From the NCBI GenBank assembly GCA_963709405.1, contig CAVPXM010000055.1:96001-160000 (forward strand): DNA of 64,000 bases, in the 5' to 3' direction. Position numbers and translations under genes: made by a program. Source of the stretch: an uncultured Nitrososphaerales archaeon (lineage in GTDB: Archaea > Thermoproteota > Nitrososphaeria > Nitrososphaerales > Nitrososphaeraceae). Shown here piece after piece: positions 27,983 to 56,224 of this stretch. The number at the start of each line of letters is the position of its first letter. The stretch's first letter is position 1. The notes under the pieces were generated by a model. The model searched no databases, had not been told where the DNA came from, and saw only the letters and a program-made list of their open reading frames with translations.

Positions 27983-28078
27983 GTTTGAATATTTCTAGCT
28001 TTTCTTACAACTGTTTATTCATACCTATACCTAGTATGCATGTATTAAGTTTCAATCCTATATTAGTCAAATTACAAC
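27983..28078 (-). CRISPR. Orphan mini-array remnant: one perfect 30-bp repeat (28049-28078), a 37-bp spacer (28012-28048) and a probable degenerate trailer repeat (27983-28011)
   Basis: 28049-28078 = GTTTCAATCCTATATTAGTCAAATTACAAC, identical to the consensus at 55395-55424. The upstream GTTTGAAT...TTACAAC keeps both repeat ends at spacer distance. Confidence 0.75.
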
Positions 28079-28102
28079 CTCAACTACTTTTCGGATAGGT
28101 TC
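28079..28102 (-). mobile_element. Isolated IS5-type left terminal inverted repeat fused to the CRISPR repeat
   Basis: CTCAACTACTTTTCGGATAGGTTC is identical to 55558-55581 and its reverse complement matches 54266-54289 at 22/24; followed by TAA (reverse complement of the TTA target). Confidence 0.88.
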
Positions 28103-28643
28103 TAAGTAACATTCTCCATTTGCCATCGCTGTGCGTACTGCGTTTCTAAGCTTGCTAAAAGATAGGTTTATCCGTTTGAACGACAGCTGTACACAAACGC
28201 CTTAGAACTTATTCTTAGATCGAGGGAGTACGGCATCGTGCAAGGAGCAAAGGCAAGATATGGGTGATACCCTCTTAAGCAACCAAGCACCAAGTCTGTA
28301 GAGAAATCTCAAGATATCACACATTGGATCCTAACGTACTAGACTAGTTGATACCAACACCTTGCAGGTCACCTTTCATGTGATTCCAGCAGGTGATATC
28401 TTTATCTTTTGTGTTACGACTACGCTATTGTAATTCCTAGTCGGGAGCTGTCCGATTCAGCTTTAGTATATGTCTCATATGGATTCGTAATTCTTACCTC
28501 GATAACTCGATTGCTTCGACAAGTAATGCAATCTATCAACTGTTCGCAACCCTACCTGCCTCTCAATCGGTTGCTGGGTCATCAAGTTTAACAGCTTACT
28601 GATATAATTTTTTTAATGTCGTGGATTGAATTTATTATTCAGG

Positions 28644-28730
28644 CGGGCCCGTCGGGAATCGAACCCGAGACAGCCGGATCTCTTCCGATTGATAAAAGTC
28701 CGGTACTCTACCTGGCTGAGCTACGGGCCC
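28644..28730 (-). tRNA. tRNA-Lys(UUU) with a 13-nt intron at canonical position 37/38 (28680-28692)
   Basis: Reverse strand folds as GGGCCCG acceptor, CCGGA-CT-TTT-A[intron]A-TCCGG anticodon arm and TCGGG-TTCGATT-CCCGA T-arm. Confidence 0.92.
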
Positions 28731-28901: not shown

Positions 28902-29007
28902 GCCCGGGTAGTATAGAGCTGCTGGGTTTGTTCCCGGCTTCATACATTCCGGTCCAGTATGGGGGACTGTCACTCCTTCGACCCGGGTTCGAATCCCGGC
29001 CCGGGCG
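28902..29007 (+). tRNA. tRNA-Asp(GUC) with a non-canonical D-loop intron (about 28917-28947, 31 nt)
   Basis: GCCCGGG/CCCGGGC acceptor, GGGGA-CT-GTC-AC-TCCTT anticodon arm, CCGGG-TTCGAAT-CCCGG T-arm; the extra 31 nt contain a GTAT/ATAC helix with 3-nt bulges (BHB-like). Confidence 0.9.
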
Positions 29008-29020
29008 TACATTTGTTAAC

Positions 29021-54252: not shown

Positions 54253-54265
54253 CTTCTTTAACTTA

Positions 54266-55253
54266 AAACCTATCCGAAAACTAGTTGAGTTTTATTGGGT
54301 TATAAGCAAACTGCATTTAATCAATAAAGCTAAGCTGTACTGCACTTTCTTCTGAGTTGTATTGATATCAGGTGCTACTGGAGTTGATTCATCGTACTCC
54401 ATACCTGATATTGTATGGGACAGACAGAATCATTGCATTGCGCTGCTACCGTCACCATCATCAATACATTGGAATAGAAAAAAGACTGGTCGTCCAAGAA
54501 TGAATGACAGGACGGCCATGAATGCTATTTTCTACGTCTTAAGAACTGGATGTCAATGGAAGGCTCTACCAAGAAGTCTTGGTGCTTCAAGTACAGTACA
54601 TGATAGATAGATTCCAAGAGTGGAGGAAAGAAGGTGTATTCAAACGCATGTGGATCGATGGATTGTCAGTATATGATTAAAATAATAGAATAGATTGGAA
54701 ATGGCAGGCTATGGATGGATGGTGTTATTACAAAAGCACCTCTTGGGGGAAAAAGTACAGGACCAAATCCCTACACACAGACAGACAGAAGTAAATCAGG
54801 TACAAAGCGTAGTATATTGGTGGTAGATGGTAAAGGAGTTCCTATTGGTGTATCCGTAGATGGTGCTAACAGACAGACATGATATGAAAATGAGTAAAAC
54901 AACACTTCAGAGTATAGTAGTAATCTATAGACCTGAACCAACAATCAGATCAAAGCAGCACATGTGCCTTGACAAGGGTTATGACTTTCCTGAAGTATAC
55001 GAATTACTAGAAGAAGAGTATGGTTATACAATTCACATCCGATTAAGAGGAGAAGAAAGTAGCAACATAAAAAGAGAAAAATTACCTAAATATAGAGCTA
55101 GACGATGGGTCGTTGAAAGGACTCATTCTTGGATGAACCGGTTTAGACGCTTGTTAATTAGATGGGAGAAAAAGGTAGAGAACCATACTGCGAAGTTACA
55201 TTTTGCTTGTGCTTGGATCACTTACAGAAAAGCAGGAATTTTCGGATAGGTTC
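54266..55253 (+). mobile_element. IS5-family insertion sequence (IS1031/IS427-like), 988 bp, defective
   Basis: Right IR TTTTCGGATAGGTTC at 55239-55253 pairs with the left IR; followed by TTA; transposase stop TAG lies inside the right IR. Confidence 0.9.
54362..55249 (+). pseudogene. IS5-family DDE transposase pseudogene
   Basis: GRPR...NAIFYVLRTGCQWKALP...STVHDR, LDKGYD and RWVVERTHSWMNRFRRL motifs; in-frame TAA at 54678 and several 4-bp duplications that shift the frame. Confidence 0.9.
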
Positions 55254-55557
55254 TTAGTCAAATTACAACGGTTCACCCTCCATATCTAACATTACTTCTT
55301 TCATGATGTTTCAATCCAGTATTAGTCAAATTATAACATTTTCTCGCATCTCATAGAGTTTAATGTTACTAATTGCGAATCCGGGAGCAACTAAGTTTCA
55401 ATCCTATATTAGTCAAATTACAACCATCAAGGCGAGATGTGTGAACACCGCCTAGTCATTGTTTCAATCCTATATTAGTCAAATTACGACACAACAACAT
55501 ACACACCTACAATCTCAGATGAAGAGTGTTTCAAATCTATATTAGTCAAATTACAAG
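55254..55557 (-). CRISPR. CRISPR array with 30-bp repeat (minus strand GTTGTAATTTGACTAATATAGGATTGAAAC), 4 full repeats + 1 half repeat, 4 spacers; no cas genes in window
   Basis: Repeats at 55254-55269 (half, cut at TTA), 55308-55337, 55395-55424, 55461-55490 and 55528-55557; unique spacers of 38, 57, 36 and 37 bp; the 3' ATTGAAAC end indicates minus-strand orientation. Confidence 0.93.
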
Positions 55558-55581
55558 CTCAACTACTTTTCGGATAGGTTC

Positions 55582-55986
55582 TTAATGGGCTCGTCTGCTA
55601 TCCTCACACAATTCTACTAAAACCCCGTTCATCGATTTAGGGTGAAAAAATGTGATTCTTCTATCATAAGAGCCCTTTCGGACATCTCCCAACATCCTAA
55701 TCCCATTGCTGCATGCCCTGGAAACGTCCTCCTGTATATTATCGGCAGTAATTGCGAGGTGATGGAGTCCCTCTCCATTTCGGTCAAGGAATTTATTGAT
55801 GGGACTATCTTTAGCAGTAGGTTCCATCAATTCTATTCTAGTATCTTCCAAATTCAGTATAGCAACTTTTACCTTCTCGTTCGGAACATCTTCTATGTGT
55901 ATCTGATTTATTCTAAACAACTTTTCATAGTTCTTCAAAGCTAGCTCTATATTATTAACTGCTATGGCAACATGATCAATCCTCAT
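55582..55986 (-). CDS. mce: Methylmalonyl-CoA epimerase
   Basis: IDHVAIAV, IELMEP, GEGLHHLA and FFHPK..NGVLVELCE motifs; clustered with the mutase. Confidence 0.94.
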   Translation of the reverse strand: MRIDHVAIAVNNIELALKNYEKLFRINQIHIEDVPNEKVKVAILNLEDTRIELMEPTAKDSPINKFLDRNGEGLHHLAITADNIQEDVSRACSNGIRMLGDVRKGSYDRRITFFHPKSMNGVLVELCEDSRRAH

Positions 55987-56125
55987 GGTTTAGTATTAGA
56001 TTGGCTCTACTTATTATTATTAACTTACTTTGAACGATTTCGGCTCTTATCGGTCACATAGGTGTCTAAAGATATTCTAATTTACCAATGAAGCGTATAT
56101 AAGTTGCTATATCGAAACTAAATAA

Positions 56126-56224
56126 ATGAAACAACCAACTCGCCGGACCTTTGCTTTCAGCTCTAAACGCAGTGGAAGCAAGAAGATTGCCAAGGCTGAC
56201 AGACGACTTCGAAATAAGCCCTAG
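56126..56224 (+). CDS. Unannotated very basic 32-aa peptide MKQPTRRTFAFSSKRSGSKKIAKADRRLRNKP
   Basis: Translated by hand; 12/32 Lys/Arg; TATATAAG at 56096-56103 at leaderless-promoter spacing. Confidence 0.55.
   Translation: MKQPTRRTFAFSSKRSGSKKIAKADRRLRNKP

Follow-up and report, generated by a model that had tools for sequence, protein, structure and literature searches.

The window analysed here is a stretch of 64,000 nucleotides (nt) from an uncultured archaeon of the family Nitrososphaeraceae (positions 96,001 to 160,000 of contig CAVPXM010000055.1, assembly GCA_963709405.1), and our subject is two short CRISPR arrays in it that are joined to one end of an insertion sequence (IS). The genome, here called G000, comprises 4.83 Mb in 100 contigs with 37% G+C and is 91% complete. 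The 30-nt repeat GTTTCAATCCTATATTAGTCAAATTACAAC is present without mismatch at locus 1 and with 3 mismatches and G as its final base at locus 2, and in both places the 24 nt CTCAACTACTTTTCGGATAGGTTC follow directly with no gap. These 24 nt are the reverse complement, with 2 mismatches, of the left end of the IS copy found at 54266-55253. In pattern searches of the window the repeat was matched 5 times at up to 3 mismatches (0.00 expected) and the 15-nt IS terminus 4 times (0.22 expected), and a chance origin of these repeats and termini is thus excluded. Tandem Repeats Finder returned no rows and no array for the window, and the arrays described here came from the pattern search.

The original prediction, made from the letters of the window without database searches, had placed the IS end on the very next base after the repeat at both loci, and this is borne out to the base. 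It had also taken the minus strand, with the 3' end ATTGAAAC, as the direction of the CRISPR RNA (crRNA). This agrees with two cas6-linked arrays, one on contig C46 of G000 and one in the same-genus genome G002, which read ...ATTGAAAG/C downstream of cas6, and the 24-nt end consequently lies on the leader side of the repeats. Locus 2 holds, besides this junction, an IS of the IS5 family inserted into a partial repeat, the whole unit of 1316 bp containing remnants of IS5-type genes and the array only (Table 1). At locus 1 the homology to the copies on contigs C97, C50 and C30 starts at 28005.

Table 1. Parts of the two loci, in window coordinates; spacers are named by family (S_a to S_g)
Feature	Position	Strand	Remarks
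Locus 1: last 7 nt of partial repeat (28005-28011) and S_e spacer (28012-28048)	28005-28048	+	
Locus 1: sole full repeat	28049-28078	+	0 mismatches; pattern search
Locus 1: 24-nt inverted IS left end	28079-28102	-	followed by TAA (28103-28105)
Locus 2: left TTA of the target-site duplication of the composite	54263-54265		79 nt after the conserved TATATAAT motif
Locus 2: IS5-family insertion sequence IS-A, 988 bp	54266-55253	+	left end 54266-54289; right terminal repeat 55239-55253
Locus 2: partial CRISPR repeat, last 16 nt, TTAGTCAAATTACAAC	55254-55269	+	IS right end inserted at TTAGTC of the repeat
Locus 2: spacer, family S_a, 38 nt	55270-55307	+	5 genome copies
Locus 2: repeat 1	55308-55337	+	3 mismatches; pattern search
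Locus 2: 57-nt spacer	55338-55394	+	start S_b-like, end S_g-like
Locus 2: repeat 2	55395-55424	+	0 mismatches; weak Rfam CRISPR-DR2 match, 24 bits, below the 37-bit threshold
Locus 2: spacer, family S_c (hairpin type)	55425-55460	+	stem degenerate in this copy
Locus 2: repeat 3	55461-55490	+	1 mismatch; pattern search
Locus 2: spacer, family S_d, 37 nt	55491-55527	+	6 genome copies; present in contigs of metagenomes X1, X2 and X3
Locus 2: terminal repeat, leader-proximal in the crRNA sense	55528-55557	+	3 mismatches
Locus 2: 24-nt inverted IS left end, bounding the composite at its right outer edge	55558-55581	-	adjoins the TTA kept in the empty site of six relatives
Locus 2: right TTA of the duplication	55582-55584		stop codon (minus strand) of the glyoxalase-family open reading frame 55582-55986
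Mini-array repeat of this genome, in another form			GTTGTAATTTGACTAATATAGGATTGAAAC

Copies of the mini-array and of its insertion sequence

Across G000 the repeat is found in 36 copies (at most 5 mismatches) at 15 loci with 1-4 repeats each, and these copies depart from their consensus by a mean of 1.3 mismatches per 30 nt. None of the 15 loci has cas genes beside it; on their leader side stands the 24-nt IS end, with unrelated flanks after it. The 24-nt end itself has 20 matches in the genome (at most 4 mismatches), 11 of them directly after a repeat, 3 at the left ends of full copies of IS-A and 6 at other IS-like ends. Its length is constant in all 11 junction copies, one of which has a 1-nt deletion in the repeat, and the flanks beyond the 11 junction-bearing elements show no homology to one another.

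Thirty-four spacers could be read, mostly of 36-39 nt with exceptions of 45, 46 and 57 nt. They form about seven families that recur across the loci in colinear order, the loci differing by missing units, and pairwise identities average 0.96 in S_a (5 copies), 0.93 in S_d (6 copies) and 0.98 in S_e (3 copies). The end-proximal spacers of the window, S_e at locus 1 and S_d at locus 2, both belong to shared families, and the only spacers confined to a single locus are variants of such families. At the level of sequence the mini-arrays are thereby shown to be copies of one ancestral array after loss of repeat-spacer units, and the flush junction goes back to one historical event that was passed on to all 11 copies. 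The original prediction had read the junction as a precision repeated at both loci; the flush edge is indeed present at both, but they are two of 11 copies of a single ancestral junction and not two separate events.

One spacer family behaves differently from the others. S_c has 12 copies in G000 (among them window 55425-55460, C50:68581-68618 and C30:63786-63889) and contains an 8-bp GC-rich inverted repeat, CTAGGCGG ... CCGCCTAG. Stems and flanks are near-invariant in the 12 copies and the central ~10 nt are different in almost every copy, unlike the other spacer families, which are 93-98% identical. Two S_c units stand in tandem at one locus, and an additional loop variant is carried by a contig of run X15. 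The S_c unit of the window, a copy with a degenerate stem, folds no better than its shuffled versions (z -0.33 and -0.85). An isolated relic at C63:86030-86095 consists of a repeat end and an S_c-type hairpin in opposite orientation, about 360 nt upstream of the array at C63:86k, and a hairpin resembling S_c without an adjoining repeat lies at C30:43371-43398.

IS-A is a member of the IS5 family, as judged from its DUF4096 and DDE_Tnp_1 domains, its terminal inverted repeats and its short target duplication. In the window copy the two Pfam domains lie at 54362-54610 and 54860-55249 and the transposase gene is broken into at least 4 reading-frame pieces; an intact relative of 282 amino acids is encoded on contig C58 (DUF4096, 8.6e-22; DDE_Tnp_1, 1.8e-19). 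The 15-bp termini of the family, GAACCTATCCGAAAA, were counted 118 times in the genome. TTA or TAA adjoins 105 of the 113 other termini, from which the target consensus T-W-A-(G/A)-T-(C) is derived (W being A or T), the frequency of TWA in the genome being 0.05 per position. The transposase frames are fragmented in all six array-linked copies of IS-A, and the copies in C30, C40 and C50 are truncated at the left. Leaving aside the copy of the window itself and short fragments of 105-280 nt on C38, C29 and C44, all five long copies at least 88% identical to the window IS are array-linked. The array-linked copies are 88-94% identical to one another save for one pair of 98.4%, and divergence among repeats and spacers is similar. 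A relative that is 81% identical, IS-B, is present in G000 in copies with intact genes, and these could supply transposase in trans.

Evidence for a probable composite insertion sequence

The prediction that the 24-nt IS end acted as a transposon end and mobilised the array has held up, on the grounds of 11 junctions in unrelated flanks, of the target motif at most outer ends, and of target duplications with empty sites at two places. TTA or TAA adjoins the outer 24-nt end in 9 of 11 cases, from which we infer that the transposase made use of this end. At locus 2, six of six same-genus genomes lack 54266-55581. At the right edge the relatives have a single (T/C)TAATGG where G000 reads GGTTC|TTAATGG, and on the left the TTA that stands 79 nt after the TATATAAT motif in G000 corresponds to a single TTA at 81 nt in G055, 80 nt in G033 and 80 nt in G044. 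Since the relatives have one TTA in the same register from both sides, the IS, the array and the 24-nt end together occupy one duplicated TTA. A second type of composite lies at C63:38134-39263, where IS-B stands in opposite orientation beside the same partial repeat; TAA flanks it on both sides, and one TAA is found at the matching place in the 4 relatives shown. The empty site could not be read at locus 1, at C21:283k, at C63:192k, where the intergenic DNA is too diverged, or at C63:258k, where the right flank had no match.

Locus 2 is also found outside this assembly, in 13 studies. Contigs of three soil metagenomes from three studies (X1-X3) bridge both of its outer junctions with 0-2 differences. 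No contig of X1-X3 has the empty-site join across the element, which is no evidence that the join is absent there. The point of insertion at locus 2 is the exact stop codon (TAA, that is, the duplicated TTA) of the glyoxalase-family gene 55582-55986 on the minus strand, which we take to be methylmalonyl-CoA epimerase. Judged from this arrangement, read-through from the gene would transcribe the locus 2 array in the crRNA sense.

These observations are very probably explained by a composite element of the "transporter" type, made up of an IS5-family IS, a truncated mini-CRISPR array of type I-B-like character and a 24-nt inverted left end. A transposase of the IS family would have paired the left end of the IS with the inverted 24-nt copy (23 of 24 positions identical) as two termini. 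The sequences show the package as a whole placed in T-W-A targets, where 3 bp were duplicated, and carried to 11 or more sites in a single Nitrososphaeraceae genome. The inner junction, where the IS right end meets TTAGTCAAATTACAAC, is presumably an ordinary insertion, because the repeat contains TTAGTC, the best target of the family. Arrays without an IS would be remnants from which the IS part was excised or deleted. In two of them the sequence starts with TAGTC, a single base short of where the IS joins; in one of these, C21:283326, the left side has TAA and one base before TAGTC and the right side has TAA, which fits excision of the IS part from a TAA-flanked composite, and three other IS-less loci, including locus 1, have ragged left edges. 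At present the element would be a non-autonomous, neutrally decaying passenger without adaptation, its array being at most transcribed by read-through and cut by host Cas6.

Several observations weigh against this explanation. Four of the 15 array loci have no 24-nt end, and two of the 11 outer flanks are not TWA (CTA and ACT). A complete IS and the 24-nt end are found together at one locus only, that of the window at 55k, and direct evidence of transposition as a unit comes from one site, with a second that is less clean. For locus 2 as well as C63:38k a two-step history, in which the array came first and the IS entered TTAGTC later, could also have given the present arrangement; in either history the 24-nt end already formed the outer terminus of the array on its arrival. 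In S_c the variation of the central ~10 nt goes far beyond what neutral decay predicts. Finally, C50:68498-68715 and C97:2767-2984 (98.4% identical) end flush with a repeat and have unrelated unique flanks, and the composite model leaves them unexplained. The larger units to which they belong (C50:67546-68717 and C97:2765-3968, 98.4% identical) consist of IS-A and a 3-repeat array and end with the last repeat plus CT, without the 24-nt end. The two flanks of the C50 copy lie on separate contigs in G002, G044 and G065, and this copy may mark a rearrangement breakpoint or an assembly chimera.

Origin of the junction between repeat and IS end

The outer junction cannot be the product of a transposase, because the IS terminus points away from the junction. 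A join driven by homology was considered and rejected: there is no microhomology, and the similarity between the subterminal IS sequence and the repeat is insignificant (for 4 IS variants, 75-93% of shuffles score as high or higher). One difference between the 24 nt and the linked IS's own left end is constant, G (11 copies) versus C (3 copies) at position 16, and the 24 nt therefore came from another member of the IS family.

An ordinary deletion has, in our estimate, an even chance of being the source. In this account an inverted second IS lay past the leader-side repeat, one illegitimate deletion removed everything from the end of the repeat to IS position 24, and the result was flush by coincidence and then copied 11 times. 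The genome is dense in this IS family, with its 118 termini, and truncations and rearrangements are common in it, as seen in the IS-A copies of C30, C40 and C50, in the ragged left edges of the arrays and in the C50 flanks that lie on different contigs in relatives. Moreover the 11 junctions are identical by descent, and a single coincidence suffices. On the other hand the prior for a breakpoint exactly at the repeat boundary is about 0.015-0.03, no microhomology or similarity is present at the join, and no intermediate has been seen. Variable lengths of the IS end among copies had been named beforehand as the sign of such a deletion; the length is 24 nt in all copies, but by common descent.

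The original prediction had proposed a different route as one of its two models, to which we give roughly half that weight, so that it stays a possible but doubtful account. Here Cas1-Cas2 of an ancestor active in adaptation integrated a self-spacer of about 37 nt, composed of 24 nt of an IS left end and about 13 nt of flank, and a transposase later cut at the IS terminus inside the spacer. Such integration would place the junction exactly at the repeat boundary and on the leader side, where a random breakpoint is expected in only about 1-2 of 67 cases, and it would supply the flush edge for which homology-driven recombination does not account. The derivation of the 24 nt from a family copy other than the linked IS is in keeping with it, as is the inclusion of the entire 15-bp terminal repeat. 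Against this, it is a single historical event without replication, the postulated 13 nt or an outer-side repeat is kept in none of the 11 copies, and Cas1 and Cas2 were not found in G000. No other spacer matches an IS or anything else in the genome, and nothing indicates that the ancestral array took up IS DNA.

Nor was a parental array found. A spacer containing the full 24 nt, the check that had been proposed for this route, is present neither in G000 nor in sets of 101 and 151 family genomes, nor in genome, metagenome and viral collections. By repeat pattern, 2 of the 101 family genomes match, namely G000 and G065, the latter with one 2-repeat mini-array; the collection of genome contigs yielded one record, the same G065 contig, and the metagenome contigs yielded two, both mini-arrays with other spacers and without the IS end. 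Among viral contigs neither the repeat pattern nor the 24-nt end had a match. With a looser 20-nt core of the repeat, 78 of 151 family genomes gave related arrays of cas type, and the IS end was seen in none of these arrays; the tally includes two genomes flagged as unpublished, G076 and G098, on which no claim rests.

The 2-repeat mini-arrays just mentioned, G065:C190:2928-3022 (L001/L013) and the metagenome contigs L014 and L015:1974-2067, have the same repeat with 0-1 mismatch, other spacers and no IS end, and the one in L015 also begins with the same 16-nt partial repeat. In G015, which is from a different genus within the family, solitary repeat units occur in three copies (L052, L063 and L064) of a multi-copy element, one unit in each. 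The last 20 nt of these units are those of the mini-array repeat, and an integrase-like open reading frame lies nearby.

If the 24 nt did enter the array as a spacer, an immune record of a transposon end was recognised by a transposase, and part of the array became cargo and spread through the genome. In that case CRISPR adaptation and transposition would be linked by direct molecular feedback, arrays would have a route to mobility, and this would be the first example of CRISPR adaptation making a transposon end.

Host CRISPR system, array activity and comparison with known elements

Sequence relationships mark the mini-array repeat as a true CRISPR repeat, of the type I-B kind found locally. 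It is identical at 25 of 30 positions to the repeat of the cas6-linked array of same-genus G002, which follows cas6 and a leader, and at 22 of 30 to that of the cas-linked array of G000 itself; Rfam gave only the sub-threshold match to CRISPR-DR2 entered in Table 1. The host array (C46:1439-1740, 5 repeats) lies between a cas6 fragment and cas8b-cas7-cas5-cas3. The order along C46:1-7570 (L036) is about 880 nt of high G+C content, a C-terminal cas6 fragment, the array, cas8b (with CXXC), cas7, cas5, whose first part contains a TAG, and cas3. The join after the first ~880 nt looks chimeric. No cas1, cas2 or cas4 follows cas3 on C46, and searches of the 91% complete genome for Cas1, Cas2 and RAMP gave no match.

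Whether the IS-borne arrays are used was weighed on this basis. They would be cut by the type I-B Cas6 of the host and act either as effector guides, like virus-borne mini-arrays, or as repeat decoys in the manner of an RNA anti-CRISPR. The presence of host cas6, cas8b, cas7, cas5 and cas3 beside an array whose repeat shares its 3' half with the mini-array repeat speaks for such use, as do the position of locus 2 at the glyoxalase-family stop codon, where read-through would yield sense pre-crRNA, and the conserved stems and variable loops of the S_c hairpins. Yet the repeat matches that of the host at only 22 of 30 positions, the host cas6 is truncated at the chimeric start of its contig, cas5 contains a TAG, and divergence among repeats and spacers is about that of the dead transposase genes. 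Searches for protospacers gave none in G000, in viral contigs (for two spacer cores) or, within the queries run, in same-genus genomes (S_f and S_g only at strict E-value limits), and phage records gave one match at chance level (E 0.03); the databases searched hold few thaumarchaeal elements, and this is weak evidence. Taken together, use of the arrays appears improbable. Contigs of the RNA-library run X15 cover array sequence, for which DNA carry-over or other copies are possible sources, and no claim is made from them.

Far less credible is the other model of the original prediction, in which the arrays acquire new spacers inside the element, with the IS end as their minimal leader. The 24-nt end does lie on the leader side, and the end-proximal spacers of the two window loci do differ, which had been taken as a sign of growth. 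This sign fails, as S_e and S_d, both from the ~7 shared families, are found again elsewhere with their relative order unchanged, and apart from variants of these families no locus has a spacer of its own. The proposed check for spacer heterogeneity at the IS-proximal end in metagenomes turned out negative as well: contigs from three studies, spanning 55460-56200, 55492-56200 and 55505-56200, carry the same S_d beside the terminal repeat. With neither Cas1 nor Cas2 matched in the genome, growth of this kind is very hard to maintain.

Leaders of two cas-linked arrays, L062 (G002) and L066 (G051), end in TAAAAAGTA(T/C)(A/G)G right before the first repeat. The 24-nt IS end also holds AAAAGTAG, 5 nt from the repeat and in a register that differs from that of the cas-linked leaders, and this likeness may be chance in AT-rich DNA.

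The least tenable explanation, that the joins of repeat and IS end are chimeras of a metagenome-assembled genome in 100 contigs, one of which (C46) opens with ~880 nt of foreign-looking high-GC sequence, is ruled out by the contigs of three other soil metagenomes that bridge the same junctions and flanks, and 11 copies with consistent TWA flanks likewise speak against it.

Among known forms of mobilisation the composite element resembles transporter IS and ISEcp1-type mobilisation, in which the transposase pairs its true end with an end-like sequence beyond the cargo and the target duplication surrounds the unit. The likeness to this class is that an IS and adjacent DNA move as one unit between a true and a second end; it differs in that the outer end here is a true inverted copy of the 24-nt left end, the cargo is a CRISPR array, and the internal right end is kept, which makes the element three-ended. 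As a composite IS, the unit lies within one target duplication, is absent in relatives and has several copies in unrelated flanks. Insertion of an IS inside an array repeat is likewise known, as with IS6110 in the direct repeat (DR) locus of mycobacteria, whereas here the array fragment was carried off by the IS and multiplied. A miniature inverted-repeat transposable element was rejected as an identity: the IS-less arrays have only one 24-nt terminus, and their other edge is ragged. The same applies to a CRISPR-associated transposon (CAST), as the 1316-bp element contains no cas effector and no genes of the Tn7 or Mu type. By comparison with Tn7-like and Mu-like CASTs, as presented in the portion of PMC11656645 drawn on here, the physical joining of a transposon to a CRISPR array is shared, but cas or Tn7-like genes are lacking and the target is the TWA motif, not one defined by a guide.

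As CRISPR arrays the loci have near-identical repeats of about 30 nt that end in ATTGAAAC/G, are regularly spaced and are related to those of cas-linked arrays; adjacent cas genes, a leader and unique, locally acquired spacers are not found. Mini-CRISPR arrays and solitary repeat units borne by viruses and by mobile elements of other kinds are known, as described in the excerpts drawn on of PMC6858448, PMC11656645 and PMC8616872. According to the same excerpts (PMC6858448; PMC11656645; PMC8616872), they resemble the present arrays in having 1-4 repeats, no cas genes, a mobile carrier and a host with a related type I system. Here, unlike in those cases, the carrier is an IS, the repeat agrees with that of the host at 22 of 30 positions, no spacer target was found, and many decaying copies exist of an array bounded by a transposon end. 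Two marks of mini-arrays that hijack host Cas proteins, a repeat identical or nearly identical to that of the host (22 of 30 here) and spacers matching competing elements, were not found. A second comparison is offered by integrative-conjugative elements of Thaumarchaeota, for which the section of PMC6563490 drawn on describes stand-alone arrays of 69-96 spacers with repeats identical to the host array and evidence of ongoing acquisition. To the extent covered by that section (PMC6563490), phylum, type I-B repeat family, mobile element and lack of cas genes are common to both, whereas the present arrays have 1-4 repeats, shared spacers and no acquisition. Beyond viruses, mini-arrays and single repeats are known from plasmids and conjugative elements. 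Literature searches, with supplementary tables such as the IS table of PMC6563490 outside their scope, found no description of a mini-array on a simple IS, and the term "insertion sequence" does not occur in the 2024 review PMC11656645.

Where the preferred target of an IS, here TTAGTC, is part of a CRISPR repeat, the IS can thus break an array, carry a piece of it off between two working ends and scatter orphan mini-arrays through a genome. Such scattering provides a concrete origin for "orphan" arrays and for false positives where spacers are used to link viruses to hosts among soil ammonia oxidisers. In the present soil ammonia-oxidising archaeon the element looks more like a decaying passenger than a working immune system.

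A minor observation concerns the surroundings of locus 1. ARAGORN reports an 89-nt "tRNA-Stop" with anticodon TTA on the minus strand at 28642-28730, about 540 nt from locus 1 and beside a tRNA-Asp (28931-29008), and this is probably a misread intron-containing archaeal transfer RNA (tRNA).

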